The position numbers were made by a program, and so were the translations under genes. From positions 13,516,001-13,580,000 of the forward strand of contig CM114271.1 of the NCBI GenBank assembly GCA_050084515.1: a DNA stretch of 64,000 nucleotides, written 5' to 3'. Positions 1-45,440 of the stretch are shown here, one piece after another. The DNA comes from Blasia pusilla (lineage: Eukaryota). Positions within the stretch are counted from its first letter, which is position 1, and each line of letters begins with the position of its first letter. Under the pieces are notes generated by a model. It did not search any database, was not told the origin of the DNA, and saw only the letters and a program-made list of their open reading frames with translations.

Positions 1-1887
1 GCCCGTGCAGTTTGCAGGGAGACTTGAGGGTTCATTCCGAGGGTCGACCACAGCAGTTGCTACTTATTTTGGCACATTATGTTGGCCTGGATATTTCCTG
101 GAGGGGAACGCCAATGCAGAGGATATTCTTGTAGATGATAGTCTTGAGGAGTGGCATGTGATGACGAGCGTGGCTACATCTGATGGCGATACTCCTTCAA
201 ATTTTTGGGGGACGAGCATCGATTTGCAAAGGAGAGCAAAAATTTCGTGAGGAAGGCGTGGAGCCGAGAATATGCTTTAGAGCGAGACGTGACAGAGTTA
301 CCACGTGCACTAGGAGTGGAGACGTTGACACCCTTGGACGTCACACCGATTGTGTGGTAGTATCCCGAGAAGGATGTACCTATACTAGATCTCTTTGGAG
401 GGATTAGTACAGCGTTGGCTGCAGTGTTGCAAGCCGGAGTACGAATACAGCAGTACTTGTATGTTGAGAGTGATGAGACTGCATGTAGAGTCTCATTACA
501 TCATGTGTCGAGACTAGTCCGGAAGTATCCTCAGTTCCTGCCAATGTTTGTAGGTAAGGGATATCAACATGTATTGTCGACCGACATTTTGTTGTTGGGG
601 GCACGAGATCTGGATAGGGTTGGTCCGATACACTTGGTGGTGGCAGGGTGGCCATATCAGGGTCATTCTTCGGCGGGTCAGGGACTTGGTTTGCAGGACC
701 CGAGATCGGCCATGTTTTGGGAGATGTTGCGTGTTCTTTGTCACTTGCAGACTATCCAACGATGTTCTGCAGCTTACATTTTGGAGAACGTCCCATTGTT
801 AGGTAACACTCGAGCCCGAGTGATGGTGAGTGTACATCAGGTGCGGTTGTGGATAGGACCGGCGATGATGTTGGATGCGGCGAGTGTTGGATCACACACA
901 CAACGTCCACAGTTGTGGTGGACAAACCTTTTATCATCCGAGTTATTGAGGCGGACTTATGATGGAGTCCAGAGACCATCACTTCTTACAATGGATGCGA
1001 TCTTGGATCTAGGGCGGCGATCTCAGGTTGTTACTTGTGATGATATACCACCGTTGGCAATGGCCAATCGGGTGGGCCAGCATAGGGCAACATTTCCTAC
1101 GTTGGTGAGTTTCCCGTCATCTCATGCTTTTTGTTAGGGAGGACCAGGCATGATATGGGATGAGCAGGCAGGTACACTGGTGGAGCCCAACGCCGACGAG
1201 CGAGAGCGAGCTATGGGGTTCTCTAAAGGTATGATGGTGGTGCCTATGATGGTAAAGGCATCCTGCAGACAGGTATTGGGTTAGGCTATAGACCTGAACT
1301 ATCTTACTTGGGTGTTCAGTCTCAGTTTGGCCGAGCAGAGATGGATGCGAAAGGCGTATGTGACATTAAGTCCACTTTGCAACGCAGCATCTACCGGGAC
1401 GGGTGAGATATTGGCTGGGGGCGCAATGGTGATGGAGAGGCATCCATGGACTTCATGGGATATGTCACGAGAGCACAAAGAGATGGGAGCTCATTTTGCT
1501 GATGCAAGACATAGTTGAGTGCCTAGAGAGTTGGTGTTTGAGTTGGGAGTGCATGTTGTTGCTCCAGAGGTTGCTAGTCAGCAACCACCACCCTCCTCTT
1601 CTCCAGAGGTCACGAGAGAGACTTCGGAGCCATTGATTGGTCCTAGGTTGACAAGGGCGGAGAGGAGATGAGTGTTGTAGTTCTTGTGGAGATTCAAGGA
1701 TTGTTTTGCATATAGTATGCACGACTTGGGTATGCTAAAGGGTCCAAGGATTCGGATCGAGTTGGATAGTGATACTCTTATCTTCCGACCACCCTACATA
1801 TATTCTGACATGGAGCGAGCCTTGATTCAGAGTAGAAGTGGAGACTTGGCTGACGTTGAACTGGTGGAGAGATTTCTTGGAGAGTAT
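1..1887 (+). mobile_element. Ty3/Gypsy pol fragment, copy A: linker, C5 DNA methyltransferase domain and N-terminal part of RT; degenerate and interrupted at 1888 by an LTR
   Basis: DNMT motifs are followed by the RT start (CFAYSMHDLG..RIRIELDSDTLIFRPPYIYSDMERALIQSR), homologous to the RT start at 9300-9430 (-). Several in-frame stops. Confidence 0.9.
382..1320 (+). pseudogene. Retrotransposon-borne DNMT3-like C5 cytosine methyltransferase domain (copy A); catalytic Cys replaced by Tyr
   Basis: One frame contains motif I ILDLFGGI (382), II YVESD, IV VVAGWPYQG (TAT at 655-657), VI LENV (781-792), VIII TQRPQLWWTN, IX ERERAMGF (~1198-1221) and X RQVLG*AID (TAG at 1282). Another stop at 1135-1137. 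Confidence 0.9.
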
Positions 1888-3251
1888 TGTCACATCTGAG
1901 TAGCCGATAGGCCGAGATCTATCGTGGATGGGGCATAGGAGCCATCGGACTATCTTGAGTGTAACTTTGTCCCACGGTGTCAGATGAGGTTGAGGATAGG
2001 TCCATTATGTCAAGAACGTCATTTTTTATAACTTTCCATTTGAGGTATTTCACAGCCGGATGATTTGTTGACCAGATCACCCGCCCCTGGTAACCTGTGC
2101 GCGGAGGTTATCAAGGGGATAGTTATTTTTAGGGGAAGAGCTTTTAGACTCTTTCCAACCCTATATAAGAGAGGAAGATGGCTTTCCTAAGCCATCTTTC
2201 TCATGTTGGGCCATTGGAGCACCTCTCTTGTATGTGTGTGAGATAGGACTAGGGTGCTAGCATCCGGATTCCTTGATAGCACAGGGTGGGCAAGGCTCGA
2301 TACGCCGATGTAGATTGAGGAGCGGAGTTTTAGGCCAGGTGTGCCGTTTTTACTACTCTTTATTTTTACATGAGAAAGATGTCAGGGGCAGGTGGGAATT
2401 CATTATTTTTATGTAGGCAAGCGAGTTGCTTTGGTGGGGAGCCCATGGAGACGCTGGTTGGCGTTTTGTTTGTCATATTTTCCATGCGGAAGGCCGTGGG
2501 CGGAAGCGTTGTCCATTTTTCTCAGATTTTGCTAGTGCGGATTCATGGGGGATAGCAGCAGGGTGTAGCATAGGTTGTGACGACGGGTGTTCACGAGTGG
2601 ATCGTCGACCGGTGAGCGGTGAGTGTCGGGAAGGCAAGGGATTTCATGGAGGCGGCCGGGGCACGGAGGCGGGCTAGGTTTAGATCGCGGAGGCAGAGGC
2701 GGCCGGAGGCACACCCCATGTAGTTTGGGAGCCTTCGTTTCGGCTCATTTGGAGTCATATTGAGAAACTTACTATTTTAGGTAAGTACCATTTTGAGTAT
2801 ATGATCGACTTTATATTTTTGGTAAGTAGCCCCTTGACCTCCTACATCAGGTCAAGAGCCAAGGAGGTGACTTGGGAGAATATGTTACCATGGAGAGAGC
2901 TTGGGAGAGGGGAGGGATATACCTCAAGGAGAGAGAACTTGAAAGCTCATTCTCTCTTTGTTGAACCTATTGGCATGAGGCGGCGGAGCTATGGTCCCTT
3001 GCCTTATGATTGTAACTCGAGCCTCTCATTAGGAGAGTGGATTTGGTTTGACATGAGAGAGATTGCACACCTTTGAGAGCTATGGTGTGAGATGGTTTAG
3101 AATGAGATTGGATCTTACTTTTTTGGAGATATTTTAGTACTTCTTGTTTCGTTGTTTAGATGCCATGAGTTAGCATGGGATTGTGTGTGTTTGTGTGTGT
3201 GTGTTTGGTGACAGCAATGTATGTTGTGTAGAGATGTGTATGCGCACAACA
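1888..3251 (+). mobile_element. 5' LTR (~1.36 kb) of a Gypsy element nested in the RT of copy A
   Basis: Starts TGTCACATC and ends GCGCACAACA. TATA-like CTATATAAG at ~2161. Homologous pieces at 12328-12543, 17133-17545, 37235-37335, 49139-49751 and 51440-51640; several share the same termini. Confidence 0.8.
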
Positions 3252-5312
3252 ATACGGACCCCGACACGGTTCAACCCTTTCATGGCATGGAAGGGGTTGT
3301 TCCAACATTTGGAGGGTCCTCCGATGGATGACTACATGGAGTTTCGATCACTATATTTAGTAGAGATCAATTCCTAGAGGATGTATTGGGCTCCAGGTTA
3401 TGTGTCCACTAGTGGTCGCGAGGCATATGATGGGATTGTGAGAGGAGAGAGACCCACACCATCAGCTCGGAGACTAGATGGAGAGGAGGGCAGCGAGACA
3501 GGCGATGTGGTAGAGACCTCTAGTGGTAGAAGGCCATCCAACTTCAGTCCCACAGTGGAGTTCTTCCGACAGTTGGGGAAGAGCTACCAGGGTGTAGGCG
3601 CCAACAAGCTAAAGAGTCTATAGGATTTTCAGCGACGATTGGGTGAGAGTCTGAGAGAGGCATTCATGCGCATGAGGAGGCTGATCATTGCTACGTATGG
3701 GGTGATTGAGGCGCCGTCAGTCCAGTATTGGTACGGGGTTCTGGATTGAGAACTACGGAGGAGAGTCCGAGATGCAGTGTTGATTCACTCAACGAAGCCC
3801 ACATTGAAGGTGGTCTTTGAGTTGTCTGAGCGTATTGAGCTCAACATGAGTGAGGAGCACGTAGTGACCGCTGGATTTTCTGGAGAGTCGATGGGTCCAC
3901 GAGCGACGGTGATCCCACAGGTGCCATAACGAGCAACCGTACCACGGAGCGGGCCAGTGTGCTCAGAGAGCAGGCCGAGTACCGTGAGCCTATGAGGCAA
4001 CGACGCGTACCTACATATGTTGCCCAGCAGGGACCGTTGTTTTCTTGTTGGACGTGTGGAGGAGCCCATAGGCAGAGAGACTGCACACAACATGGGAGAG
4101 GACCACGAGCGCCTCCAATTGCTCATGAGCCACGGAGGATGGCCCCACCACAGTACTAGTGTGACTATTGCCACAAATATGGTCACACTAGGGATAGATG
4201 TTTTGATCTTCTTCGAGAGGCACGTCCAGAGGTAGGCCGAGGGCCAGGGGGCGGTTGTCTTGGAGGAGGTTGGAGAGTTCTTCCTGGACATGGTGGTAGA
4301 GGACCACCATTAGCCAAAGGAGATGGAGCAGGAGCACCAAAGCCGGCACTTCTCTCACGCATTGATCAGTTGGAGCAGAGGATTGTTGCCATGACAATGA
4401 TGCAGCTCAAGGAAGGCACGGAGCCATGAGCAGCTAGTGTGGCTCCAACTTTTACCTCTTACCCCAACCTGGGTAAGGATCTCGCTAGTATGGGGTTTAT
4501 GTGTAGTGCAGCTCAGGTTGAGGCAGCTGCAGTGGTGACTCAGGGTGCTCCGAGAGGCACCGAGCCATCGAGAGGTGGAGTTGAGATTGACCCAACGGAG
4601 GGGACCGATGGGGGCCAGGCCAAGGTTCCACAATCATTCATATTGTTGAAGGCACTACACACACCATCGATGATGCCTCGACGACCAGCGCTGCCTACAG
4701 CTCAGGCACATACGTCGACGTCACGAGGAGTTGGAGTGACAACTCCTATGCCAACTGGAGTGGAGTCTGTGTCGACCATAGTGTTGGAGGTGGCCACTAG
4801 AGTAAGTGAGACTCGGCTATTTTCCGCCAAAGAGTTGGAGACGTTGGGAATTGGACCAGCTGAGGTATTCTGGATGGCCTCCATATTGTGCGAGCGTGGA
4901 GAGGTGACTACTTCTTGTTCAAAGGTAGTTGAGGAGATGGTGGACTTGCCCTCAGAGGCGGTGCTCGGGACGTTCCCCACATAGTCATGGCATGCAGCGG
5001 CGGCAAACTTGGTAGATATGCCAGCTCGACCGGCCATAGAGCGAGCAGTGGTGACACCTAGAGTAGTATCACTAGATAACCGAGCTGGAGTATTTCGCTT
5101 GGTTAGTTTGATGGGGATAGTATACCACCCGCAGCGCATCCTACTTGATTCAGGAGCGTAACCCTTGATGTTAGGGGAGGCCGCGTGTTTAGCGTTGGGA
5201 TTACGGAAGGCCGACATTGAGCCTTGTCCTTTCCAGATATAGACCTCGATTGGGGGCGTGTTACCCACGCAGTATATGACTGACAGGAGATAGTTGTCAG
5301 AGTCCAGCCAGA
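3252..5312 (+). mobile_element. Degenerate Gypsy gag (two CCHC zinc knuckles) and aspartic protease, truncated at ~5312
   Basis: CWTCGGAHRQRDC (~4045-4085), a CDYCHKYGHTRDRC-like knuckle (~4160-4200), and protease motif RILLDSGA*PLMLG (LLDSGA at 5141-5158). Stops and frameshifts present. Confidence 0.85.
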
Positions 5313-7237
5313 GGGGGGCTGGTATTCTGGCAGGAGAGAGGAAGAGAGGAGAGTCTCTCTTTTTAAAAAAAAGGGCCAAATCCGCCTCCTCTCTTCAAAA
5401 CTTTTTTACATATTTGAAATTTTTGATTGCTTTCAAATTCATGAAATCTTTAGAAGAGAGTAGATAGTGGTCCACATTCGGGCCTTAAGAAACTTCCTTT
5501 TTTCAGGGGGAGAGAAACAAGTAGACATCATAAGACCACTACAAACATTTTTCCATCACTCTCCATGTGAGCCAAGTTTTTTCACATTGCGTGTCTCGGT
5601 CTACAGTAAGCTCTGCCTAGGGATTTTTTTTTTTTAGGCCTATTGGCAGAGATTACTACTAGAAGTAGCAATCTCATCTCAATGAAAGGTTCAAATAAAG
5701 ACCAACTTTGTGAAATGTGAACACATGAGACGATAATTAAACCAAAAGATTGTTAGTTGTCTGGAGTAAAGAGAAACTGATGTCCCTTCATTCAGATCCT
5801 AAATCCGATAGACCGAGATGTTGCACCCCTCCCAACCCGTCGTAATTTTATAGGTTCCAACTCTTGCAACCCTTCGGAATCAGCCCCCTTCACTTTTGGT
5901 CTACCAGGGAAAGAGTCCGACCACTCAAGCAGCCAACCTGTCGGAATCCGACAGCTTGCTTGGAAATGGTTGAAAAGTTGCAGTGGTCAAAAAGTGAAAA
6001 GTTGCAACCCGTCGGAATCACACAGGTTGCAAAATAAACATTTTGAGTAGCTAGACGAACACAATCCACAAGTCCAACAAAAATTTCAGCGAACTTTTAC
6101 AAACACCATTATCGGTTGAAAAAATCTCGTTCTTTATTACCTCCGAAGGAACCTCGGAAATGTACATTTGATCTAGTCTATGATTTCATTCAGCCTCGTC
6201 ATCTACAAATTTACTCCTAACTCTCCTAGGTTCCTATACAAAAGGAATGTCCTGGGATACAAGTGGCTCCTTTGGCCGATTGTAGATGGGGATCGAAAAC
6301 ATTTGCGGTCGAGCCTTCCCCCTAGGTACACCATAATGGTCCCATGTAACCTGATTTGAGTCCCACCGCCTTCCTCGGCAGTAATTCTTCTACGCTCTGC
6401 AATGTGGCACCCATCCAATATCAATATGTGCTCCGTCCTTGGAAATACCATGATGGCAATCCCACAGATAGTAGGAATCCAACACGTCTGAGAGAAGAGA
6501 AGAAGCCTACGCCTTGTTTGACGATACTAGGGGAAGGTGCCAAAGTGAAGAAGCCCGCCAGAATGCCTCTTAAGTTGGACCAACAGGGAAAGAGTCCGAT
6601 CACTCACGCAGCCAACCTGTCGGAATCCGATAGGTTGCTTGGAAGTGGTTAAAAAGGTGCAGTGGTCAAAAAGTGAAAAGTTGCAAGCCGTGGAAATCCG
6701 ACGGGTTGCAAAATAGAAGTCCTCGGAGTACATAGACGATCACATTCGAAAAGACATAAAAGATATTCAACAAACTTTTAGAAACACCATCATCGTTCGA
6801 AAAACTCTTGTCCTTTATTAAATCCGAAAGAAGCTCGGAACTGTACATTTCATCTATTCTATGAATTCTTTTGCCCTTGTTATCAAATAAATCCCTACTC
6901 CAAACGCTATGATCAAATAAGGGTCCTTGAGTTCTTTGAACTCACTCGTCATCGTCCGAGAGCTCTTGCAAAATTACTGTCGGCCTTGCCCTCCCAATTT
7001 TTGGAATCGTGGGAAGTGACGATGGTGTCACTACCAATGGTGGGTCTGGAACCCGAGCTCTCGGCTTCGAAGGAGAGTTGTACGCCCCAACTAGCCTGTC
7101 GTAATCTGCCTTTGCCTCCTTGCAAAGGTCAAACATTTGTTGCCTTCCCTCAGGGCAGAGAATGTTCCTGCCACTCTGCCAGGCGCCTCTGATACTCGCC
7201 CCTGAAAGGCCCACTAAGTCGAACACCAAGTCACCCA
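5313..7237. mobile_element. Unclassified, probably non-autonomous DNA-transposon-like repeat with an internal ~290 bp direct repeat
   Basis: The start GGGGGCTGGTATTCTGGCAGG and the following ~500 bp recur inverted at 45505-46386. Direct repeat ~5903-6190 vs ~6580-6865. It interrupts the protease on the left and the integrase on the right. Right boundary approximate. Confidence 0.6.
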
Positions 7238-10200
7238 ACGCCTTGTCACACAAGACCTGAAACTCACCTTGAAACTCTGTACCCTGGTCGGTCAGCACTT
7301 CAGCTGGTGCACCAAAATGACTAAGCACTCTATCAATAAATGCGTACGCCGTTCCCTCACTTGCCTTGTCAGGTAATGCCACCAACTCAATCCACTTGGA
7401 GAAGTGCTCCACCATCACCAACACATATCGATGATGTTGTACAGTCAATGGTAACCGTCCCGCAAAGTCCACACTCCAACCGTAATCCAACCCCATAATA
7501 GGCAAGGGGTGTAATTGTGGTGTAGGGGCATTGAATGATGCCCTCACTCGGTCACAAACCATACAACGTGACACCAACTGCTGCACCTGAGTATGCATGC
7601 CACGCCACCAATACTGACCAAGGAGTAAGCTACACGTACGCTTTACCCCAAAATGTCCCAACTCCTCATGGGCATGTCGCACAATGCGCTCTCTCTGAGC
7701 CAAATGCGGCACTACTCATACTCTACCATCCTCCCACACACGAAGAATATGTGTTCCCTCCAATCGATACCTCTTAGCACGTTGAAGAACACAGTCTTGC
7801 TCCTTGGCACTCACTATGCCTCACACCCTATTGGTCCGTAGGAACTCCAACACCAACGCATCATCATGAATATCACGCTGATCCGTACCACCATCTCCAA
7901 CCTTAGAATCTGAAGGCTGGCCATCTACCCTCTGACTAGAGTAAGATGTCATGTGGTCCTCCATACTAGAGTCCATCCCTAAACAACTTAAAAAGGCGGA
8001 TGCATGCCAACCTGGCACCATCTCCTCATCAACCTCGCCATGCCATCTAGCCCCAGTTGCATCCTCTTGGCTAGTACATGGGTTCCTACTCAACCCATCA
8101 GCATCAAGGTTGGCAACTCCAGGTCTATGTACCACCTGGAAGTCATACTCATGTAAGATAAGAGCCCACCGTGCAAGCTTCCTTGTAAGCTTGTCAGACT
8201 CCATCAACTACTTGAGCGGCTGGTGATCAATAACAAGGGCAAACTGTGTGCCAAACAAGTAACACCTAAAGTGTGCCACAGCCCACACTATTGCCAAGCA
8301 CTCTTCCTCATATGAACTATAGCTCGACTCCGCTGCATTATTCGAACGACTTGCATAGGCCACCACAAACTCCATGTGCTCATCATCATGTTGTGTCAAC
8401 ACCGCTCCAAGTCCCAACCTACTCCAAAAAGTATGTAACTGAAATGGGCGCCCTCTGATAGGTCTCCTCAAGATAGGCGCCGCCACCAATTGGGCCTTAA
8501 GCTCCACAAAAGCTCTCTCCTGATCATCTCCCCAGTGCCACTCTTGATCTGATTTCAACAATTGGTTCAAAGGCTTTGCCATAGCACTAAATCCCTTCAC
8601 ATACCTCCGATAGTATTTCGCCAATCCCATAAATGCCCGAACTCTACTCACATCTACCGGACGCGGAATAAGTGCAATAGCCTCCACCTTTGCTTGCTGA
8701 ACTTCCAAACCACCAGGATAGATCACATGACCCAAGTACTCAACATCCTCATGGAAGAACTTACACTTTCCTGGATGCAAACGTAGACCATGAGCTTTCA
8801 ACCGCTCAAACACCATCTGCAAATATATCTAATGCTCCTCCACCGTGTTACTCAACATCAAGATATCATCAATGCAACATCGAAAAAAATCCAACCCTGC
8901 TGGGATCCTGTCCATCAATCTCTAAAACTCGGCAGGTGCATTCTTCAACCCAAAGGGTAAGAATTTCCACTTGTACAAACAATCCTTGCCATGAGAGTTG
9001 ACACCCCAAAATGTTGTCTTGGCCTTGTCACTCTCCCGAATCGGCAATTGATGGTATTCTGCCCGAAGATCCAAAGTACTGAAAATCTTTGCCTGTCCCA
9101 CCACATCAAAGATCTCCTCAGGTGTAGGCATGGCATACCTAACGGCCTTGGTTTGCCAATTGATAGAACGGTAATCTCCACACATCCGCCTATCCGTGTA
9201 GTTTCCATGCATATCCTTTTTAGCAAGCATGATAGTGGCTGATGTATTCTGTCCATGCGACAACTTCACTAATCCAACCTCCAAAAGGTCCAACGTCCTA
9301 CTCTGAATCAGGTCCCTCTCCATATCACTATATCGGTAGGGACGACGGAAGATTGGCGTATCACTAGCCAAATTAATCCGTATACCGGGTCCAACCAAAG
9401 CACCCAACTCCTTCATGCTAAAGGCAAAACAACTCCTATAAGCACGTAGGAACTATGTCAAGCATCGCTTCTCACCTCCCGTAAGCTTGGGCCCAAGTAA
9501 TGGCTCCCAAGTCTCCTCCACTGGCACACTAGAGGGAGAGGACGATGCCATTGGCTGCTACGCAACCCCCTCACAAGATGGTACACCCTTGGCTACACCA
9601 TCATTTGAGCAAATAACTCCTCCACCACATTGAGCAACCAACTCCACATGCCCAGCGATTACATCCCATTTACTCCAAGGATGCAAAATATTACTCTCCT
9701 CGCCCCCAGTCGATGCCTCTACCGTCCCGGTACCCATCAAGCTCATTACAAGGGATGGAAGACCCACAGACATAGTCTGAAGTCGACGCTGTTCGGCCAT
9801 ACCAAGACTCAAAATCCAAGTCAAACAATTCAGGTCCATGGCCTGACCCAACACATGACGTCGTGAAGCCTCAGAAATGGAAGCAACCACTGTCACACCA
9901 GTAGCAAATCCCATCGCACGCTCTCTCTCATCACCGTTAGGCTCCACCAACTGTCGCACATGAGAATCCCATACAAGCCCGGGACCACCTTCCGTGTAGG
10001 CATGTGACGAGGGAAAACTCACAAATGTGGGTAGTGCCATCCTAGGCTGGCCCACACGGTTCACCACTGCCATGGGTGACCGATCAATAACCCTCACCAT
10101 CGAGAAAGTCGCCCCAAGATCCAAGATACTATCCTTTGTAAAGGCAAGGATCCCCCGCCTTTGCATCATATGCTCGACGTAGAACCTCCCTAGGTAACAA

Positions 10201-10960
10201 GTTTGTCCACCACAAGCATGGACAATGTGCACGCGAGCCAACTCGCGCTACATCCAACAACACCGCTGGTCCAATCCAAGACCGCACCTCATGAACACTC
10301 GCCATCATCCAGGTCCGAGTGTCACCCAACAATGGAACATTCTCCAGAATGTAAGTTGGAGCACGTGTCTGATGAACCTGAAGATATCTTAACATCCTTA
10401 ACATCTCCCAAAACAATCGAGACCTAGGGTCGTGTAATCCCTCACCACGACCAGCACGTGTATGACCCTGACATGGCCATCCAGCAATCACCAAATCCAC
10501 AGGACCAACCCTCTCAAGGTCCTGCGCCCCCAACAATGCAATGTGTGATGGCAAAGCACGCTGGTACCCACGAATAGCTGATGGCGGAAACAACTCAGGA
10601 TATCTCCGCATCAACTGACCAATATGTCGGGATGAGACTCTCTAGGCCGTCTCATCTCGCTCCACATACACGTATCTCCGCACATGAATACCGGCCTGCA
10701 ACACTGCAGCCAAACCAATGCTAATCCCACCAAAGAGATCTAACACACAAATGCCCTCCGGCGGATACTGCCATACAATGGGTGTAGTATCCAAAGGGGA
10801 TAACCCAACTGGACCAGAAGTAGGAGTCCGCCGTGGGGCCTCCTCTTCCTCGTGAGGTATAACAACCTCACACCAAACCTCCTGCACTAAACTTGAGATG
10901 CATAAAGCGCCTAACACCTCTCCGAAAAGCACCAAATGAGCTACACCATTGTGTACATTG
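7238..10960 (-). mobile_element. Ty3/Gypsy pol, copy B: DNMT-RT-RNase H-integrase; degenerate, integrase truncated, no recognisable gag/PR upstream
   Basis: RT motifs RMCGDYR, FSTLDL..YHQL, LPFGLKNAP and CIDD (from YIDD, ~8866-8877). RNase H motifs YASRS..ECLAIVWAV..DHQPL and ARWAL..ADGLSR. Integrase HHCC (HEELGH..CMVC), WSVDF and LTDQGTEF. RT-RH-INT order is Gypsy. Confidence 0.95.
9810..10755 (-). pseudogene. Retrotransposon-borne DNMT3-like C5 cytosine methyltransferase domain (copy B); catalytic PCQ retained
   Basis: Motif I VLDLFGGI, II YVERD, IV GPVDLVIAGWPCQG (Cys codon 10471-10473), VI YILENV, VIII RAHCPCLWWTNL, IX ERERAMGF, X RRHVLGQAMD. One stop (10642-10644) and a frameshift near 10150. 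Confidence 0.92.
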
Positions 10961-12543: not shown

Positions 12544-14500
12544 AAGGGGAAACCTGCTCTCATATGTTTCTCAGGGCCTCAACAAGTCATCCTTGACCTA
12601 CTGAGCATGTCTTCCACTACTCATGAAGGCGCTCTACTAGATCTCACCGATCTATCCTAAAAGACTTGACACGGTTGAGGTGAAACCGCTCAAACTTTAT
12701 AAGGTGTTCTTCAACCCTATGGAGAGAGAGAGATAAGTCCCACCCTTACATTGATTACATCGGCACCTCACCCTTTTTATACCCAGCTTACAAGCCAAAA
12801 CCTGCTCCCTTCGCCACAATTTATAATCATATGCTAGTACTCACTGCGGATTATCAAGGGCCAATCTACGTCCGAGAGGAGCTTGGTGGTATCATGGTTG
12901 CTCTAATGAACATACCAACCCAAATAAATGAACAAGGTATTTCGAATGAGATTCCACACAGAGCCACGCATAGAGATGAATATATGTAGATGTAAGTTTT
13001 ACTCTTTCTATCATCATTAAGGAAAGAAAACAAATGGGGAAAAAATATGATGGGTTTTGTGTAGACCCCTGAGGAGATCTATTAGATTGCTAATTTTTAC
13101 CGGATCTTTGGGTTGAGAACAAAGTGTTTCCCTCACACCGTCCTCCGTACGCAACCCTACTGTAATAAAAAATTCCCTACATTCACCTAATTGTTTTTTC
13201 ATATGGGTCTCTCTTTACACAGATGGCCATTTATTCTACTATGATGTAAAATAACTTCATATGTTCTCATGCAGAAGTCTGGTTTCTTTCAAATGTTATA
13301 GAGCCACAAAAAAGGCCGTCCATCATAGAATTCCAGCTCCTATTGTCACTGGCATATTACAAAAAATTAAACCAAAATGTTTAAACGGAATGTTATGAGT
13401 TTTCTTTTCTGTCCCATACACCCAATTGCCTACACAACATGGGCATGCAAACCCTCCAAGAAATGTTCCACTTTTGGAACCTATACAAATCTTCTGGTTG
13501 CATACATACATGTAATAGGATCTTATCCTATATGGCTAACTGGGTATATATTTTCTCGTCCAAGGTCAAGAGTGTACAAGCATCTTAGATGGATGCTTGT
13601 ACCTCTCATCATGTACCATGATGATCCTATATTATGATGACCACATAGCTGATACAAGTATTGGTTCTGTTGTAAGGAGCAAGCAGTGACAAAAATGGTT
13701 GAATATCGAACCGTATAATCAGTTTGTTTTCACACAATTTAAAAGAAAACACGCACTTATGCTCTATTGGAAGAAGTACTTTTAGCAATGTTCATAGCCT
13801 GACATATGACACATCAAAACTCATGCTACGGATCGGACTCGTTGCCATACACCGGCATCACGACATATGTTTAGGCAACATATGCAAACTCTACCTGACA
13901 CTATTCTACGACTTGAACGAATGCATACTAAGTTCCCTAGAGTTACAAATTCCCAAGTATTGCAATATTGAAGAATGACCTTCACTATCAAGCCACCAAT
14001 AGAACGCGCATATTCAACCAGGGCAAATGCCTTCTTGACCATAGGAGAATCCTCCCTAGGGAGCATTCCCCATGCAGCATGACAAATATGAAGGGTGACT
14101 TTTCGAAGTACCCCAAGCATTAGCCATGCTATTAGTGCTCCTCGATCCTCCCTCCACATAATAATGTTTATAAATCCTACATACACAGAGCAATCTTCTA
14201 GACGGAACAACCAATTTATAGTCTGCCTTTGTCGCCTATTTGGGATCCAATAACGCTTAGAGTAAGCATGAAAGTAACAAATATTTGCGCTTGCAGATTC
14301 TTGGAGGGCAAGGGCATGGTCTAAGAGACTAGTAGGCCTACTCATGCCAAAAATCTTGACCTTCACTTCAAAAGGGAGGCTCCTCAATCGAGCCACAAAG
14401 TACCATGATATATTTTGAGCCATATTATATCGTTTGATGGGTGATACCTGATACCATCCACCATCATTATGAACGTTATTTTATTTTAACAATTTATGCA

Positions 14501-14618
<118 letters not shown>

Positions 14619-26470: not shown

Positions 26471-28025
26471 TATCGGGAGGGGAGAAAGTGAGAAGAGAGG
26501 TGTGTTGTATTACGACTGTGGTGACTGCGATCGAGAAGGGGATTCGGAAGGGGTGCAACATCGGAAGCAGAGGTTGGACGGAATGGATTTGAAGGTGTTG
26601 CAATTGATTGGTTACTGCAGCAGGAAAGGCTATGGATGTCGGAGTGGGTGAATCGCGGGAGATTGGAGTCTTTTCTGGTGAGCCGGAGAGATCCAGAGCT
26701 TGGTGTTCTGGACGTCTGAGTGGTGAAGGACAGCTGAGAGGAGTGCAATAATGTGTCCGAGTGGCAGAGGGTTTTAGCGAGGTGGAGCGGAGGTTGCGAC
26801 GGTGGTATGGTTGGATTTCCGAGATAGGGATGGTGGAACAATTTGATCGGATTTTGGAGCTCTGAGAAGCTGCCTTGTGCCACGGCATCCAGGTGAACTT
26901 AAAGCACAGGATTTCAGCATTGTTCATCTCGGAAGGGAGGTTTCGCTTGTGTGTTTTCTGTAGAAAGTCTCCATTTTGTGGGGCGATGTTGCAAAATTGG
27001 AACTGTGTTGAAGATCATTGGTGATTGTAGCGGGAGTCGGTAGTGTAGGTTCGTCGTGCAGGCCTTTGGGAGAAGGAAATTTAGTAACTCAGAATGGGGT
27101 TTGGCGTGTGTAGCTGCATGTAGGGTTCGGGAGGACTTTGAAGATGGACCTTTCACAGTGGGAATCTATGTCAAACTGAAGCATTGTGATCGCGGCCATC
27201 TGCGAAGCTCGCAAAAGACTTCCCAATTGATTTAATCGACAGGCGTTTGCAGTATCGCTCCAATTTTTTTTTCCATTTAGCTGTACACAAAGAGCCGATG
27301 ACATTAGAGCTCAGGAAAGAGCATATCAGAGCTGCGGAGCTGCCAGGGAAGGTGATCTCTTCTCTAGATCACGAAGTACGCAATTGGTTGGTTTGGATCT
27401 CAAGCACGTGGATCTCATCGTTGACTGTTTTTCGCTAGGTCAAGCGAAGCAGACAGGAGAATGTAAAAAGCCGTGTTGTACAGTTGATTTAGGAGGAACT
27501 TGGAAGCGTGCTTTTGAGCGTTTCCCCTTTTCAGATGTATTTAACCATTGCGAATTATGCTATATAAGTTATTTCACTGGATTTCAGCGGGTTGAAGAAA
27601 CCCACTATCATGCTTATCTTAGAACCCTGTCTTCCATTCTGATTTGAAGTAGGGCAGTTGGCTCTGGTCTCTCTAAGTCCTGCCACCTGAAGCTGGGGGG
27701 GGGTGACTGGAAGTTCATCTAGCTGCACAAATGATCAGTTAGGGATCCCAATTGCAAAATTCCTGATATTTGGAGCATTAAGTTGGTTGCGCCTGCAAGA
27801 GTGGATTGGGAGTCTGATATTGCTTACGTAAGATAGACTTTGATGTTCGTTTGGCACTGCAAGTTTTGTTACACTGAAACTCTGCATTGCATACATTGTT
27901 CTTTCCACGTTTCTCATCAAAGAATATTTCTGGTGTCAGATATGTTGCACAATTGATGCTTACTCTGCCAAGCAAAGAATCTCAAACGGGCTTGGAGGGA
28001 AAAGGGTGCATGAGATCTTGGGAAA

Positions 28026-29232
28026 ATGTCTAGTGACCGCAGTGAACGACGATCATTCCTGCATTCTCTCTCAGATACGGAATCTGATGCAGAACAGGGG
28101 TGGACAGAGGAGAGCTTATCTTCAAATCAGAATGGAAGACAGGGTTCTTCAAAATCGGGGGCTGCGGTCCCCGAGAGCTTTGAGTTGAAGCAATGGGGTA
28201 GTGATGAGGAGCAGAAACAAAAAAGATTACCACCCCCAGAGGAATCAGACGTCAGAAGAGCCTCTGTCTTGCAGGATGGGGAAACTGGACATGGAAATAA
28301 TGAGAAGCCATCAGTGCATTTGCTCTCGTCCTACCCAGATGGTGGATCAGAACAATCAAAGGAGGGTACTTCCGATGGGTATAGGTACAGACCACAAATT
28401 GTAACACGTCATTCTCCAGTTTCAGATGACAATTCAGATGAAGGAGCTCACAGTGATTCCGATAGGGGAAAAGAAGGAAGCAGCCACAGTGATAGGAGGT
28501 CATTGCTAAGGCCCCAGCGAGAGGATGGACAGGGTGAGACTTCCAGAGAAAGAGCATCTGTGAGTCGAGGAAGGCGATCTTATTACCCAGCTGCAACATC
28601 AGATGTTGATTTGGAATCACAGATTGATCCTGCAAGAGATAGGGCAAAAACATCCAGCAGGCGAATATCCCGGATTATCTCACCAGAGCCTGATATAGAA
28701 TCGGATTTTGAAGCTAGGGATTCTGATGTAGACAGAACACCACGTCACCCCACACTTCAGAGAAGGCCCTCAATTGCAGCTCAAGTGGGAGAAAGGGTTC
28801 CCCCGGAGTGGGTTCTTCTACTGCTTGGGTGCTTCCTGGGCCTTGCCAGTGGTCTCAGTGTTGTGACATTCAATCGAGGGGTGAGCAGATTCGCATTTTC
28901 TAACAACCATGTACCTTGAAATAGTTCTTGTAGTTCTTGCACCTGTGCAGAAATTCAGTGAGTTAAGTTGCATCAAGTGTGTGTGCAGGATTGTTAGTCC
29001 ATAAACTTGTGCTCTTGGGATGCCTACCTGCCTTATCTTTTTCTGTGTACTAGTTACATGACCACTTGCTGCTTCAACTCCTTGGATGGTTTTTAGTTGC
29101 ACTTAGCTATTCACTTCTTCTTTAGTAGAGTTATAACAGGACAAAAATGTCAATGCCTTGATTTACCATTTTCTAATATGCCATCATAGGTTGTTTATTA
29201 CTCCATTTGATCAGGAGACTCCTGGAAAGGTA

Positions 29233-29292
<60 letters not shown>

Positions 29293-32200
29293 TAATGTAT
29301 TGTGTATATATATGTATATATGTATATATATATATACATTTATGTATTTGTGAACTGTTTGCTCCAATACATTTGTGATCAAGTTTTTGACTACTCACGA
29401 CTTTTTTTGCTGGTGTTTGCTGTATTTTTACCAGGTTCACTTGATACATGATTTGGCCTGGGCAGGAACACCTCATGAAGGAGCAGCATGGTTGCGGCTT
29501 CAAAAACTCATTGATATTTGGCACAGGATCATGCTTATTCCAGTGGTTGGAGGTGTGGTTGTTGGGATGATGCATGCAATTGTTGTAGTTATAGATCAGG
29601 TCAAAGCATCCAGGCCACCACGAAGGCATAGTATTGATTGGCTAGCGGGAACAAAGCCAGCACTCAAAGCTTGTCAGGCGATGGTGACTTTGGGAACAGG
29701 TTGCTCACTTGGACCTGAAGGTCCAAGTGTTGATATTGGGAAGTCGTGGGCTCATGGTCTCGCTACAGTGATGAAAAATAATCGAGAAAGAAGAATTGCG
29801 CTGGTGGCAGCCGGTGCAGCAGCTGGCATATCTGCAGGTTTGATTACTTTTCTATCAATAGGGGATATCTGTCAGATGCTTGACGTTATATTGCCACATT
29901 GTAAGGATGCACTGTAATAAGATTCAATGCAGCTTCAGTAAAGTAAGTGAGGATAGGGGATTCTTCACCTGTCATCTTCCAAGATGGTTCAAGCCACTGT
30001 ATTGCTGTCAGACATGTTGTATACGGGACAGATGTAAACTACTTCTCTATACTCTGTGTCATTCATATCTCCAAAGGAGCATAGTCGGGTAGAGTGTATT
30101 TTCACCTTTATGATGGATAGGATATTTTAAGATGATGGACATGATATGATACTTAGATTGTTCTTTCTCAGTAGTGGATGCTTCCATGATTTGTGCATAC
30201 ATGGAATGTTAAATTAATACTTCGTCTTAATTGGACCTCGAAGTCATGAATGAAACCCATGCGTAAAGTGTCGCATGAGCAGTTTTTCTTTTTGCATCTA
30301 AAGCTTGACGCAATTGTAACATCTGCCTAGAATTGGAATTAGACATGTGAAGTATTGTTGCCTCACTGTCTGTACATGTTTTTCCTAACTGACTTCAGGT
30401 GAATCATTGTTGCAGGATTTAATGCACCTGTCTCAGGATGCTTTTTTGCCATTGAGACAGTGTTGAGGCCGCAACATGCAGAAAATTCTCCACCTCTGAC
30501 AACAGCCATGATTATTTTGGCATCTGTGACATCATCTACAGTATCGCAAGTCCTTTTTGGAGAAACTGCAGCTTTCACAGTACCTACCTATGAATTACGC
30601 TCTGCAGCTGGTACATACGTTCTATCCATAATAAACTTCTGTTAGTTCATTGCATTCAGTCAATCTGTATTAGTACAAAGTTCCAGTGGAAATTCCACTC
30701 CAGGTTTTTGACTGGAACAACCAGAACACTCAGAAATTGCTACCATTTTTTTGTCTTTTTGTCTGTATTGTCTTTGCTAGCTGACTTTTCCGCATGATTT
30801 CTTGCAGAACTTCCACTCTATCTGCTGTTGGGTGGTCTCTGTGGTGTTGTCAGCGTTATATTCACTCGCATGACAGCTTATTTTTCGGATATGTTCGAGT
30901 TTCTAAGGGATCGTATCGGCATACCTGCCACTGTAACTCCTGCAATTGGGGGCCTTGTAACAGGTTTGATTGCACTAAGGTATCCAGGTGTGCTATATTG
31001 GGGTTTCACAAATGTGGATGAAATATTGCACTCAGGAAAATCAGCAACTGCTCCAGGCCAGGGTCTGTTGATACAGTTAATCTGTGCAAAGGTTTTTGCC
31101 ACTTCCTTTGGTAAAGGGTCCGGACTGGTAGGTGGTGTATATGCCCCCAGCTTATTCATAGGAGCGGCAGTTGGTTCCGTATATGGTACAATGGCAGGAA
31201 AGGTGATCAATGCTGCCATGCCTGGTCATGACACTGTCGCACATCCTCAGGCGTATGCATTGGTATAATCATTTGATCCTTGTTTTCAGAAGCTTTGTGT
31301 ACACTCAGTTTTCTGCTTGTCAATTCAATATGCTCCATGTATGTGTACTTGTCTATAGTGAAAGATTTGTTGAGGTACCAGTCTTGGGCTATGAACAACT
31401 GGATTCATCAGATGTGTTAGAACAGGGTTATCTAGACTGTAAAAGGGACTTGGTCGAGCCTATAATAATGAAAAGATTCCCTTGTGAGATTGGCATGGAA
31501 TGCAGTTGTTGATGCCTAAGACATTCCTCAGGTATCAGTAGCATAGCATGTCATAATATTTGCTCCTTGTGTTTGGAGCAATTCATTTAAGAAGAAATCT
31601 ATTTCCTGTTGTCTCCTATGTGCAGGTGGGAATGGCTGCACTACTTGCAGCTGTGTGCTCAGTTCCGCTGACATCTGTCCTACTGCTTTTTGAGTTGACG
31701 AAAGATTACCACATCCTGCTTCCTCTCATGGTATGTTGTGCAGACCTCTTGGAGATTCCGCTAGAGACAGAGGAGGTCCCACAAATCATGGCGTAACTTG
31801 TATCATGTCTGCTTGATTTATCTCAGTGACAATTCCTTTCAACTTGAGTCTCACAGTGAGGTGGAGAAAGAAGAACCTTGTGTAAATGTTATTGTATAGA
31901 TTTTTCATTTCCTTGGTTCTGGATCCGTCTGAGAACTGGCTTGAGCGTGCAATGCTGAATGCACGTTCAAGCCAATTTATGGGTCTAGTAACCATATCAT
32001 CAGAGATCTAAATTCTAGTCAGATTTCATGGAGCAGCAAATAAGCAGTCCAGGACTTGAATTGGACAAATATTCATCATTGAACTTCCTTGCTGTTTAGG
32101 GGAAGCTTTGAAGCTACCGGTAAGGTGTTTCTAGCATAGAATTGGGAAAAGATTTGTCATACTATCCTTAAGTATGATGTATTTATACTGTCAATCCACT

Positions 32201-34070: not shown

Positions 34071-36029
34071 CAGGGTTGTGGAGTTTTGTAGTCTTTTGAT
34101 CGGTATTGGACAAGTAGGAGGTCGAAGGGAAAACTCTTGAGGATGCAATTGAAGACCTCTAGAGGGCTTTCTGATATTGTACATTTTCCAGGCAAGTAGT
34201 ATAAGAGTGTAAATGATACACCAGTGCAATTAGAGTAGGCATATAGTTGGTAGGAGGGCTGTCAGGCAGTTTGTTGGGTCCGAAGGTTACCCACTAGCCT
34301 CCAGCTATAATGTAAGTTTCACATTCTTGTTCCAAAGATTCTTTTTAGGAGATCTGTCTCACCAAACCATCATCTGGCGGTTAACAGCTTTCAGTGACTG
34401 TTCCTTTCTATGTACAGTTTTGAACACGAGAGTTAGCCAGTATGCCAGTTGTCAGCTCTGAAATGTGAACAATGTGGATTGAAATCTCAAGCTGCGGCTC
34501 AAGTGTCGCAGCCTGTGTCCACCACTCTTGTTAGGAGGCCATGAACTGCATGTGTCCCACATGACCCTTCCCCTTATCCTCTGTGAATGTAAGTGGAAAA
34601 GGCTTGGAGGTATGAAGAGAAGATTTTATACTACTGCATCATATGAATGCAGTTTCTATTGGAACCTTGAACTGTAGGGCATAATGTGGACTAGAAGTCC
34701 AGATTCTTTTGCCGGGGACTGAATGTGATCACACCGGGTCTCTGGAGAGCAAAATTTACAGCTTGGTATATGCCACATTACTTATGGTCTTGACTTGTTT
34801 GCTTGCGGAGTCTCCAAATTGCGTCTTGGAGTGGTGTATGTACCCACAAGTTCAGACTCTAAAGCTGCTAGCACTACCATTATGATCCGCATGTTCCGAT
34901 ATGTATGGATCCAAAGCTGATAGTTAATTACATACACTATCAGAAATGCGTAGGGCTGGATAACCAGTGTACTACATTGTGACGCCGGCATGCGTGACCT
35001 CGCGGAGTAAAAATTCAGGGCCTGGGGTGAGAACAGCTTTGAATTAAAAATATCCAGCCTTTGCCCATGGGGCACGCCGCGTGCGCAGGTGGGCCCACGA
35101 GTAGCAATAAACAATAATCTGTCATTATTACGGGATTGTTTTAGGAGCATGTTTTCATGTGAGAAGTGGATGGTTGTCTTCGGTCCTGACCATGCTTTCA
35201 TAAGAGGTTTTCTTGCTCGTTCCAAAACCAATACAATAAATCCATGCATCTTTAAATGGCTTTGACAAGTTGCTTCCCTATTCTCGACCATTTCTTTTGT
35301 ATGCCCTAAAGAGTGTCCTTCCTATTTGGGGAACCAATGTTGCTAATTATGACCAGCCACGGTATGAATCTTACAAAATTTTTTTCTTGCTGTTTTAAGA
35401 ATAGAATATATTTTTTCCCGGTTATCACATGTCAAACAAAGGTGTTTGTAAATCAAGAAAGCATGTAATTAATAGAGTATTTTTATTAATTTGTTTGTAA
35501 ATATAAAATTTTTATATTTATAAGGTCCATTGTAAGTCGGAGTGTAGAAGGCGAGTGAGAGCACACTCCGAATAAAAAGATGTTATGGCACAATTACTAC
35601 TTGTCATTTAAAAAATCTCAATATATTTGGAGTTGAAAAATAATATATTTATAAAGTTAAAACAATTTACCTTATCTATGGCCTTTTATGGAATTACTCT
35701 CTATGACTATTCAAGTATCTAATTGAAAATATTCTACTATCATACCTACACTAAAGAGAATGTTGAAATATCATTATAAATTTCACCAAAAAAGATATTT
35801 GAAAATAAAAAGATGAATATTATCCTATTAAATTTTTTTCAATCCAAGATAAATCTTTCCTTGACAACCTTGTCTATAAAATTTCCATGGCTTTATCCAA
35901 TTAATAAATTGAGACCTTATATCACAAGGATTAAACTTCATACAAAAGGTTGAGCATGATATTTCATAACCATTCTCCACCTAACGCCTTCTATTCTATT
36001 AATATACTTCCTTGAGATCCTTAGGAAGA

Positions 36030-37335
36030 TGGTAGAGTAGGCGTAGTGCCTCATCCTTTGCAAAGAGCACGTTTAGTACAGAATCCCCACGAGGAGTTGG
36101 AACACTTTGGAGTGAAGTGGACATACAACTTGCTCTAGATTGGTGGCAAGACATGCAGATTGACGTTCAACAATTTTCTGCCACATGCATGGTATGTGAT
36201 CAAGTTCAGACATTATTCAATGCTCTGACTCCACAGTTGTATCCATTTTCGATTGTAGGTTTAGCTTATTGATGGAGTTTGGATTTTTAGGGCCTTTGTC
36301 TTTGAAGAAGCAACATAGTTGTTATGTGTTGGTAATGGTTGAGCATTTCTCGGAGTGCTCGCAAAGCAAGTGATAATTAATCATAAAATTAATACACACA
36401 AAATCACTCTCTAGAAATAAATAAAAAAATATAAATCTCAAATTAGGACATTTCTAGAGAGTGAAGTGCATTAATTTATAATTAATACATTTCTCGGTGA
36501 AGAGAGGATTATGCAAGTATGGCTTGTAGACAGATCACCTAGGAGATTGGGACCTATAATTGCCATGGTTGGTGATGGGATAAAGATTCAATAGGTAGAC
36601 ATCTTTAGGATCGTTCTTACTGTATTTGTTGCTTTATGGCCAAGAGCTTGATTTACGTGTGGCCATTCATCTCGATGCAATTGAGGTGTTGAATCTCGAT
36701 GATCCTGATGTACGGATGCACGGATGTTCTTAGAGGGTTGAGTTGAATTGGAGACTTATGCCCATGGCATTTGAGAGCTTGGTGATTGCACAATATCAGG
36801 ATACTTTGAGGTTTGCGACTATTCAAGGAGGTGGTTATCGATCCACGATCCCTAGGTTTCATTAGATGACACCTACGACCATGGATATGACCATGGGATG
36901 CACCATCTTGAGAAAGCAAGATATTTTGCCATTAGGTGTTCTCTTATTGGAGGGATGTGATGGTATGGTTTGGAAGGATCATGTGCGTAAGTGTGCGCCA
37001 TAACACCTTCCTAACATTGAGGGTATAATTGAGCCAAGCTTAGTAGTGGTTCTTGTAGGCTCACATTGCATGTCGTGTGGTTCAGCCACGATGCTAGGGT
37101 AAATATTAGGTAATCATAGATCCAAACTTTTGTCTTTGGCATCCTAGAGATGTATGTCATAGTAGATAGGGAAAGATGGCTATCCGGAGTTAGAGGGACC
37201 TAACTACAAGCTAGGGGGACAATTGGAGATATTTCAATCGTCTCAATGTTTAGATGGCATGAGTTGGCATGGTATCTTGTGTGTGTATTCGGTGACAATG
37301 ATATATGTTATGTAGCGAAATGTATGCGCACGAAA
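36030..37335 (+). mobile_element. Highly degenerate 3' part of the same Gypsy lineage: integrase, possible start of a PHD finger, and LTR end
   Basis: PHPLQRARLVQNPHEELEHFGVKWTYNLL and YVLVMVEHFS match the copy B integrase. Then VKRGLCKYGL and WKDHVRKCAP*HLPNIEG..HCMSCGSATML. 37235-37335 matches LTR end 3153-3250. Confidence 0.75.
36354..36487. mobile_element. Small AT-rich foldback element (MITE-like) inside the integrase remnant
   Basis: Inverted repeat TCACTCTCTAGAAAT / ATTTCTAGAGAGTGA. Flanked by direct repeat CATTTCTCGG (36344-36353 and 36488-36497). Confidence 0.55.
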
Positions 37336-43599: not shown

Positions 43600-43726
<127 letters not shown>

Positions 43727-43879: not shown

Positions 43880-45440
43880 TCTCTCTCTCGACAACCCATA
43901 TAATGATTGGTTCTCCCTGGCTGAGGTGGGAGCAGCGATCAAAGAACTTGTGAACCACAAAGCAGGCGGTGGTGATGAGCTTGTGAATGAGCTGTTAAAG
44001 TATGGCGATGCTGCTATGGCTTGTTCTCTAGTGAGTCTCTTCAACCAGGTCTGGCGGGCATAATTCATCCCACAAAGATGGCGGGTGGGAGTCATCGTGA
44101 ACCTCTTCAAGAAGGGTGAGCGAGAAGACCCTGGAAACTACAGGGGTATTACATTGTTGAGTGTAGTCGGGAAGCTCCTTTGCCGTATACTCAACAATAG
44201 GATCTCTGTGTACCTGGAGGAGAATTTGCATCAAGGAAGGCCAGGCTGGCTTCCAGCAAGCCCGAGGATGCGTGGACCACATCTTCACCTCCAGTCAGAT
44301 CATCCAGAGTAAGAAAAAAGAGCGAAAACCCACCTATTGCTTCTTCTTGGACCTCAAGAAGGCATATGACACTGTATGGCGTGACAGACTATCTTATAGC
44401 TTGTGGAAGGTGGGGCTGAGAGGGAAAATGTGGAGGGTGGTGGAGAAGATGTACAAGAACATAAGGAGTAAAGTTCTGGTGAATGGCCAAAAGAGTGGGA
44501 CATTCAACATCAAGCAAGGAGTGGCTCAAGGATGCCCGCTCTCCCCCACGCTCTTCAACATTTCGTGAATTCCCTATTGGAAGAAATGGAGGATAGTGGA
44601 CTAGGCATACGGGTGGGCAACAACTCTATTTTTGCCCTCATGTTTGCTGATGACTTTGGTGGCCTCGAGGAAACAGGAGAGAAACTCCAAGAGATGATCT
44701 CCCTGACCAAAATCTGGTGTGACATGTGGGGCATGGAGGCAAATGTACTGAAGTGCGGTGTGATGATTTTCAATGGCAAGGAGGAGGACCAAGACCAACA
44801 ATGGTACTGGGGTGACCAAGAGATCCCCCGTGTGGCTACATACAACTATCTGGGCATAGAATTCTCGGAAGATTCCATGTGGGATGCACACATTAAGAAG
44901 ACCACAAGAAGGTGAATGGTCTGTCCAGATTCCTACACTGTCGGGATATCACATTAGAAGTAAAGCGCTATGTCATTTTGCATACCATTCATCCCTCGCT
45001 GGAATACGGGGCAGCAGTGTGGGATGCCAACACCAAAAAAAAGGATAGGCTTGAAGTTGTGCAGCTGAAGGCGTTTTGAGGTATGATGTCAACCTCATCA
45101 CGAAGAGCCCGAGTTGGTGTGAGATCAGAACTAGGTGTGGAACCCTTGGAGGATAGACGTGACATCGCCAAGTTGAAATGGCGGAGGCAGCTGGAGACAA
45201 TGGACTCCCATTGCTATCCTAAAGAGGTGATGGGGAAAACCTGGACCCAAAGAAGACCCGTAAAGCAGGCCAAATCTTGGACGAATAAGGTGCAAGAGAT
45301 TGTGCAAGCATCCAAGCTCCCAACAGGGCCTGAATTGTGGGAGCAAGATGAGAAAGCATTCGTGGATATCATAACTAAAGAAGTCGTCAAACACTCACAG
45401 GAGAACATCACGGAGGAAGCCATGAAAATGTCTGTCTGAC
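43880..45440 (+). mobile_element. Truncated LINE reverse transcriptase (RTE/RTEX/L2-like; clade not resolved)
   Basis: KAGGGDEL..ELLKYG, LFKKGEREDPGNYRGITLL, FLDLKKAYDTVWR, QGVAQGCPLSPTLFNI, LMFADD, YNYLGI. Stops and frameshifts present. Confidence 0.9.

Follow-up and report, generated by a model that had tools for sequence, protein, structure and literature searches.

Does a cytosine methyltransferase domain lying beside a reverse transcriptase in a liverwort genome belong to a retrotransposon family as a stable trait, or was it acquired or juxtaposed on a single occasion? The question is raised by a 64,000-nucleotide stretch of Blasia pusilla DNA (assembly GCA_050084515.1, contig CM114271.1, positions 13,516,001 to 13,580,000, forward strand; hereafter the window), which is eukaryotic and repeat-rich with a GC content of 0.42. 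A preliminary description of this sequence had recognized two copies of the fusion, A and B, lying on opposite strands and taken to represent two subfamilies of one element. Our analysis assigns both copies, with a probability of about 0.88, to the streptophyte Ty3/gypsy long terminal repeat (LTR) retrotransposon lineage called Gypsy-DNMT3, first described as KnitGypsy-Dnmt3 in Klebsormidium nitens. Copy A is a dead, truncated Ty3/gypsy LTR retrotransposon insertion, and copy B, likewise dead, is a separate insertion that stems from another lineage of that family.

Copy A lies on the plus strand from position 2 to 1890 and consists of a C5 DNA methyltransferase (DNMT) domain, a linker and the start of a reverse transcriptase (RT). 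From position 328, frame +1 reads TPLDVTPIVW*YPEKDVPILDLFGGIS ... AIDLNYLTW ..., after which comes the N-terminus of RT, and six in-frame stops interrupt this course (Table 1). The Pfam profile PF00145 (C-5 DNA methylase) matched above its cut-off with 27.7 bits (E 2.4e-6), and the DNMT motifs I (DLFGGIS), IV (GWPYQGHS), VI (ILENVP), VIII, IX (ERERAMGF) and X follow one another in the normal order. Homology to related proteins is already present at base 2, within the post-protease spacer and in a frame other than that of the DNMT, and continues to about 1888-1890. Copy A therefore runs off the 5′ end of the window, and its right side is cut by another repeat, inside RT at about 1888, so that only about 85 RT residues are kept. 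The span first proposed, 328-1887, is corrected accordingly.

Copy B, on the minus strand from 10890 to 7230, is longer and includes the spacer, the DNMT (10800-9813), the linker, RT, ribonuclease H (RNase H) and the zinc and core domains of an integrase. PF00145 again exceeded its cut-off (36.8 bits, E 3.9e-9), and the pol domains characteristic of Ty3/gypsy elements were all identified by Pfam (RVT_1, 1.9e-24; RT_RNaseH, 1.8e-31; Integrase_H2C2, 6e-15; rve, 4.3e-11). Eight stops and one frameshift near 10141-10150 disrupt the copy, and family homology stops at about 7236, inside the integrase core, as judged by tblastn and by loose read ends at 7236. In both copies the DNMT lies inside the polyprotein frame, which is a single frame broken only by stops in copy A and likewise, with the one frameshift in addition, in copy B. 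A tblastn search of the window with copy A recovered only itself and copy B (10800-9249, minus strand; joint E 3.4e-140). The DNMT-linker-RT layout attributed to the two copies is confirmed, and their colinearity, running from the pre-DNMT spacer through the DNMT and linker to the RT start, begins even earlier than had been described.

A search seeded with copy B retrieved 24 proteins, the named hosts being Marchantia polymorpha, Sphagnum fallax and Calypogeia fissa. These relatives carry the DNMT in one open reading frame with the rest of the polyprotein, whose full order is gag (CCHC knuckles), aspartic protease, spacer, DNMT, linker, RT, RNase H and integrase. Polyproteins of these three bryophytes annotated as 'hypothetical' (P0001-P0012, P0016, P0021, P0024) belong to the same family with the same domain order and show 47-71% identity to the copy B DNMT and 40-56% to copy A; they are gene models of other species, many of them broken, and none is near enough to stand for the subfamily of copy A. 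With the copy A DNMT as query, an exhaustive HMMER search matched 1818 cluster representatives when E <=0.001 was allowed and 157 when E <=1e-30 was required, many of the matches being polyproteins of 1000-3400 residues. An organism name was attached to 5 of 30 representatives, including Klebsormidium nitens KFL_013780020, two Closterium proteins and one Scenedesmus 'pol'; Closterium P0326 and Scenedesmus P0186 were further cluster members. The Klebsormidium protein has the order CCHC, protease, DNMT, and one of the Closterium proteins the order CCHC, protease, DNMT, RT.

The class of the methyltransferase was examined on these relatives. When a Marchantia relative was compared by sequence with the PDB, the 25 best of 27 matches were DNMT3A, DNMT3B or DNMT3C, with E values from 1.7e-8. 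The Calypogeia relative P0007 was modelled with AlphaFold from a 42-row alignment, and ten-residue blocks of this model were mostly above 90 in predicted local distance difference test (pLDDT) score over approximately residues 300-640. All matches listed by Foldseek for the model were DNMT3A/3B/3C chains, at 22-24% identity; the target template modelling (TM) score was 0.77-0.84 where the chain was an isolated catalytic domain and 0.40-0.54 where it was longer. Together with the unrearranged order of motifs I, IV, VI, VIII, IX and X, the PDB and fold matches point to a DNMT3-type domain. Host DNMT3, as represented by the human DNMT3A/3B/3C structures, has the same catalytic fold and motif order and supplies the best PDB matches, but it differs at the identity given above, and the family DNMT has neither PWWP nor ADD and is embedded between protease and RT.

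Since the region is a mosaic of nested, truncated repeats, the domain could be regarded as a piece of a host DNMT3 gene that merely adjoins retrotransposon debris. We give this explanation almost no credence. In copy A the DNMT, the linker and the RT start share one frame, and copy B as well as proteins from five further genera have the same junctions. Where a stand-alone host DNMT3 would have introns and, in animals, PWWP/ADD readers, the family has gag and protease upstream and RT downstream, and Pfam detected no PWWP or ADD domain in the relatives.

DNMT-bearing retrotransposons have been reported in Symbiodinium and Klebsormidium (de Mendoza et al. 2018, PMC5890265, in its available text, on which the statements from this paper below are based). 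KnitGypsy-Dnmt3 of Klebsormidium nitens corresponds to the window copies in being a Ty3/gypsy LTR element with an unrearranged DNMT3-type domain inside its polyprotein, and in the constraint on this domain, for which the paper (PMC5890265) gives Ka/Ks < 0.2 against the 0.23 obtained here between A and B. Its host is a charophyte alga and not a liverwort, the identity to the Klebsormidium DNMT is about 30%, and the copies in our window are dead. The repeats of KnitGypsy-Dnmt3 have a DIRS-like arrangement (PMC5890265). KFL_013780020 is likened to this element by its layout and is a candidate only as one of the published copies. SymbioDIRS-Dnmt3 and SymbioLINE-Dnmt of Symbiodinium also have a DNMT within the retrotransposon coding region but belong to the tyrosine-recombinase DIRS and the long interspersed nuclear element (LINE) classes, respectively, and are described as an independent acquisition (PMC5890265); the SymbioDIRS domains performed de novo CG methylation in yeast (PMC5890265). 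The name 'streptophytes (Gypsy-DNMT3)' is used in the available text of bioRxiv 10.64898/2026.05.21.726589. The kind of element found here is therefore not new, the DNMT-bearing trait having already been published for the lineage (PMC5890265), while the liverwort is a new host group. The main text of PMC5890265 makes no mention of Marchantia, mosses or liverworts, and we found no main-text description of bryophyte DNMT-bearing retrotransposons in the full-text literature, although the supplements of PMC5890265 and PMC12344493 may list some.

For the phylogeny of the DNMT, we retained rows with a single match covering at least 280 of the 340 query positions and dropped near-duplicates, which left 126 of 149 rows. 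A quick LG+G4 tree was calculated on these, and a second quick tree used the posterior mean site frequency (PMSF) model on 54 rows (31 plus 23 sampled from those of the other domain order). One branch parts 31 from 95 rows with a Shimodaira-Hasegawa-like approximate likelihood ratio test (SH-aLRT) support of 99, and the same split received 96 in the PMSF tree. The 31-row side holds copies A and B together with Klebsormidium (P0121) and Closterium, so that the window copies group with the DNMT of the Klebsormidium element; all seven rows in which DNMT precedes RT fall here, and no row of the reverse order does. The 95-row side takes in all 41 rows of that reverse order, together with all 23 that have DNMT before integrase but in which no RT was seen. 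The eight-row clade (SH-aLRT 100) to which copies A and B belong also includes three rows from Marchantia, one from Calypogeia and two others. In the RT tree (47 rows), a single change separates the two domain orders; the DNMT and RT trees, whose congruence had been put forward as a check on the fusion, thus agree on the one deep split testable. The RT start of copy A, compared with its relatives over 78-83 columns only, is about equally far (56-59%) from all of them.

The rows with RT before DNMT disclosed a second, larger Ty3/gypsy group, in which a homologous DNMT lies between RNase H and integrase and is followed by a PHD finger after the integrase (P0040, P0053, P0057, P0131 and others). 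These polyproteins, from many environmental contigs and from Scenedesmus sp. PABB004 ('pol'), the sole named host, share with copy A the Ty3/gypsy pol and a DNMT of 30-40% identity (E down to about 1e-48), but differ in the position of the DNMT after RNase H, in the PHD finger and in their place on the opposite side of both trees. No main-text description of this order was found in the literature searched, supplements being outside its scope.

The existence of this second order, and the recurrent capture of DNMTs by retrotransposons across eukaryotes (PMC5890265; bioRxiv 10.64898/2026.05.21.726589, in its available text), could suggest that the A and B lineages, or liverworts and Klebsormidium, acquired their domains independently. 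We consider such separate captures very improbable, because copies A and B are colinear from spacer to RT and Klebsormidium KFL_013780020 aligns colinearly with Marchantia P0005 over 569 amino acids (29% identity, E 1e-54), from the protease to the end of the DNMT. Moreover, all DNMT-before-RT rows stand on one side of a well-supported branch, and the RT tree requires one change. Membership of both copies in a single Gypsy-DNMT3 lineage also agrees with the earlier view that the fusion is neither a local duplication nor a one-off capture, since A and B share only 67% of their nucleotides and the gag-protease-DNMT-RT order is present in Marchantia, Sphagnum, Closterium and Klebsormidium proteins.

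How far the two copies have diverged, and under what constraint, was determined from their alignment. By tblastn, amino-acid identity was 60.6% over residues 1-213 and 47.6% over residues 214-519, and nucleotide identity in the two alignable blocks was 67.5% over 1005 nt and 70.1% over 221 nt. A codon alignment of 512 codon pairs gave amino-acid identities of 58% for the DNMT, 36% for the linker, 57% for the RT N-terminus and 54% overall. The 55-65% estimated by eye in the preliminary description therefore holds for the domain blocks and is slightly high for the whole. Ratios of nonsynonymous to synonymous substitution (dN/dS), calculated by the Nei-Gojobori method (NG86) with bootstrap 95% intervals, were 0.23 (0.16-0.31) for the DNMT over 332 codons, 0.17 (0.08-0.42) for the RT start over 82 codons and 0.75 (0.42-1.24) for the linker over 91 codons. 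The DNMT was thus under purifying selection during the divergence of A and B, as had been proposed, and the strength of this selection is about that on RT. Both copies decayed after insertion, which raises dN/dS, so the constraint in active lineages is stronger than these figures from two decayed copies show.

Decay is also visible at the catalytic residues, which in neither copy are those of a functional enzyme. The codon at 655-657 of copy A is TAT and the aligned codon of copy B (10473-10471) is TGT, as first described. In the column of the catalytic cysteine, 29 of the 30 other rows on the streptophyte side have Cys (the remaining one has a gap), as do 95 of 95 rows on the other side, and Tyr occurs in copy A alone; Cys in all 124 other rows with a residue supports the proposal that this codon decayed after insertion. 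At the two conserved arginines of motif VIII, copy A has R,Q, with Gln in place of one Arg, and copy B has C,C. In a simulation on B-like codons, the six stops in 521 codons of copy A fitted about 0.10 neutral changes per site, with about 19% of residues changed; the same reasoning gave about 0.05 per site for copy B (eight stops in approximately 1220 codons). Departures from columns conserved among close relatives amounted to 24.8% in copy A, 12.2% in copy B and 1.8-15.1% in six relatives. About half of the extra protein divergence of copy A fits neutral decay, which qualifies the inference of a subfamily.

Three side observations concern base composition. Among the private changes of copy A at conserved residues (328-1335), 18 were single-base, and of these G>A on the sense strand accounts for 11 and C>T for 2, too few for a conclusion; 35 of the 53 departures differ from the copy B codon at several bases and were left out of this count. 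Both copies are G-rich on the sense strand, with a GC skew of about 0.24-0.27. The CpG observed/expected ratio is uninformative, with values of 0.58-0.68 for the copies and 0.60 for the window as a whole.

Copy number was assessed with whole-genome reads sampled at about 1 in 100 and mapped at 85% likeness or more, the depth being summed over both read orientations. The run from which they came bears the same coded species label as the DNA run in which copy A was best represented. Every bin of the mapped stretch is repetitive, so copy numbers are given as bounds only. Most of copy A was covered to a depth of about 77-105, copy B to about 1200-1750 and a gag-protease fragment downstream of copy A to about 950-1020; in the bin 869-1302 the depth was inflated by reads whose fit is confined to the conserved stretch of motif IX (loose ends at 1178). 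Reads at least 99% alike numbered 790 of 112,146, which caps single-copy depth at about 9. In run X1, a contig identical to 12727-13000 had a word depth of 3.6, whereas the summed word depth was 160-180 for A and 2500-6500 for B. Copy A has a letter at several sites that hardly any read shares (at position 445, for example, 211 of 223 reads depart from it), and some of the departing reads carry just one other difference. A-like copies thus number at least about ten and probably tens, and B-like copies are more than ten times as numerous.

These data bear on the most serious alternative, that A and B are insertions of one family and not of two subfamilies, copy A being merely older and more decayed. 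The end branch of A is indeed 0.38-0.43 long against 0.15-0.17 for B, its excess of changes at conserved columns is about that expected from 0.10 neutral changes per site, its place inside the eight-row clade is weakly supported (81-85), and none of the proteins in the database shows a clearly greater similarity to A than to B. We nevertheless judge this alternative unlikely. The estimated decay of the two copies covers under half of their nucleotide difference of 0.33 and less of the proportion of synonymous differences (pS), which at 0.62 is too large for decay to account for it. The depth of A-like reads is also well above the single-copy cap, and these reads are too unlike B to be B-like. 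The evidence for an A subfamily consists of these genomic reads at 85% likeness or more, and it favours the two subfamilies that had been postulated.

Transcription was followed in two stranded RNA runs. Over the coding stretch of copy B (7379-10850), depth was 43-144 with the first mate on the plus strand and 0-10 in the other orientation, which with the usual library type means RNA of the minus strand, sense for copy B. RNA depth over copy A was 1-5, in the sense orientation. Most RNA reads are less than 99% alike, so the transcripts come from other copies and not from those in the window. The B-like subfamily may still be active, its genomic reads being abundant and its RNA reads in the sense orientation (runs X12, X15 and X16).

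Several points weigh against the assignment of both copies to the Gypsy-DNMT3 lineage. First, no terminal repeats of A or B are definable, A being truncated on either side and B at its 3′ terminus. Secondly, the dS between A and B is about 1.3, near saturation, which makes the dN/dS ratios rough. Thirdly, the trees are quick searches, unrooted and calculated on rows without host DNMT3. Fourthly, a DNMT3 derivation of the domain is suggested by PDB sequence and fold matches at 22-24% identity. Finally, the yeast assay of the Klebsormidium DNMT domain was inconclusive (PMC5890265).

Table 1. Coordinates of the two DNMT-bearing copies and of the repeats adjoining copy A in the window (LTR, long terminal repeat; RT, reverse transcriptase).
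Feature	Position	Strand	Basis
Copy A spacer between protease and DNMT	2..238	+	tblastn of Marchantia P0004 aa 267-345 and P0005 aa 754-832
Copy A DNMT3-type C5 DNA methyltransferase domain; stops 358, 1135, 1282	328..1335	+	Pfam PF00145, motif columns
TAT (Tyr) at the catalytic Cys position, motif IV (PCQ)	655..657	+	Cys in 124/124 other rows with a residue there
Copy A linker between DNMT and RT, poorly conserved; stop 1516	1336..1632	+	36% identity to B, dN/dS 0.75
Copy A RT, first ~85 residues; stops 1669, 1678; homology ends	1633..1890	+	tblastn
Very abundant repeat unit, LTR-like; interrupts copy A (left) and the gag fragment (right); not part of copy A	1888..3251	+	Read joints, repeats
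Fragment of gag (CCHC) and protease from the same DNMT-bearing family, decayed	3252..5317	+	tblastn of P0002, P0004, P0005
Copy B linker, RT (~9197-8721), RNase H (~8450-8145), integrase zinc (~7700-7539) and integrase core (~7481-7245); seven stops	7230..9812	-	Pfam, tblastn
Copy B spacer and DNMT; PCQ kept (TGT 10473-10471); stop 10644; frameshift; both motif VIII arginines replaced by Cys	9813..10890	-	Pfam, tblastn, motif columns

The LTR-like unit that truncates copy A has the highest read depth of the stretch and contains a (TG)n run (3175-3212). Its end at 3251 is connected by reads to 1888 and, on the opposite strand, to 12671, with 1-4 additional letters at the joint, which is the pattern of tandem LTRs or of circle junctions. 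Part of the unit (2732-2951) is 91% identical to 12547-12327, upstream of copy B. Neither the unit nor its related piece at 12673-12327 (minus strand) was assignable to copy A or B, the copies being truncated. The unit also occurs at 51248-51643 (plus strand). The gag-protease fragment beyond it, on the same strand as copy A, is without the first 33-38 or so gag residues, and the first 33 of them were sought upstream of 3237 and not found.

Other features of the window touch the element less directly. A chloride-channel CLC-f host gene with introns lies at about 28000-32000 (plus strand), and a 156-residue exon of it is 94% identical to proteins of Riccia fluitans and R. sorocarpa and 85% to that of Calypogeia. 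On this single gene, the host would be placed in the Marchantiopsida, among the complex thalloid liverworts or near them. An isolated integrase fragment at 36025-36595 (plus strand) is related to the same gypsy group (55-68% identity to P0022 and P0023). By eye, two overlapping open frames at 44167-44915 (plus strand) are a candidate non-LTR (LINE-type) reverse transcriptase, and an open frame at 55289-55816 (plus strand) with helicase-like motifs (VVDECSM ... CQLPPV) is a PIF1/Helitron candidate. The simple-sequence runs at 14504-14615, 43601-43722 and 29233-29347, mutually perfect or self-complementary, are ordinary microsatellites.

As members of the Gypsy-DNMT3 lineage, the two copies have the following history. 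The family polyprotein runs from gag (CCHC) through aspartic protease, DNMT3-type DNMT, linker, RT and RNase H to integrase. A and B are separate dead insertions whose lineages were constrained while they diverged, each copy then decaying neutrally, with the change from Cys to Tyr in A as one of the results. In live copies the DNMT would be made within Gag-Pol and is predicted to methylate DNA de novo, and by analogy with the proposal of de Mendoza et al. its target may be the element's own new complementary DNA (PMC5890265). Neither copy in the window would be capable of this now.

A wider reading, which we advance tentatively and regard as doubtful, is that a Ty3/gypsy element captured a DNMT3-like domain once, early in the green lineage, and that the domain was kept under selection and moved once within pol. 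It would occupy the position protease-DNMT-RT in streptophytes (Klebsormidium, Closterium, liverworts and Sphagnum) and RNase H-DNMT-integrase-PHD in the chlorophyte Scenedesmus and in many environmental contigs. With the B-like subfamily one of the most abundant repeats of this liverwort and sense-transcribed, a de novo methyltransferase encoded by transposons could possibly be a real input to a land plant methylome.

As a second copy in decay, copy A itself does little more than confirm a trait already known. Of greater weight are the persistence of the lineage from charophytes to bryophytes, its high copy number and transcription in a liverwort, and the sister group with another domain order. 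Seldom does a parasite encode the mark by which it is normally silenced, as a retrotransposon bearing its own cytosine methyltransferase does. In the plant lineage one charophyte alga is the published example, and liverworts and a moss retain the same element lineage and domain order. Bryophytes, among them the transformable model Marchantia, thus offer a setting in which the function of a transposon-borne DNMT3 could be tested.

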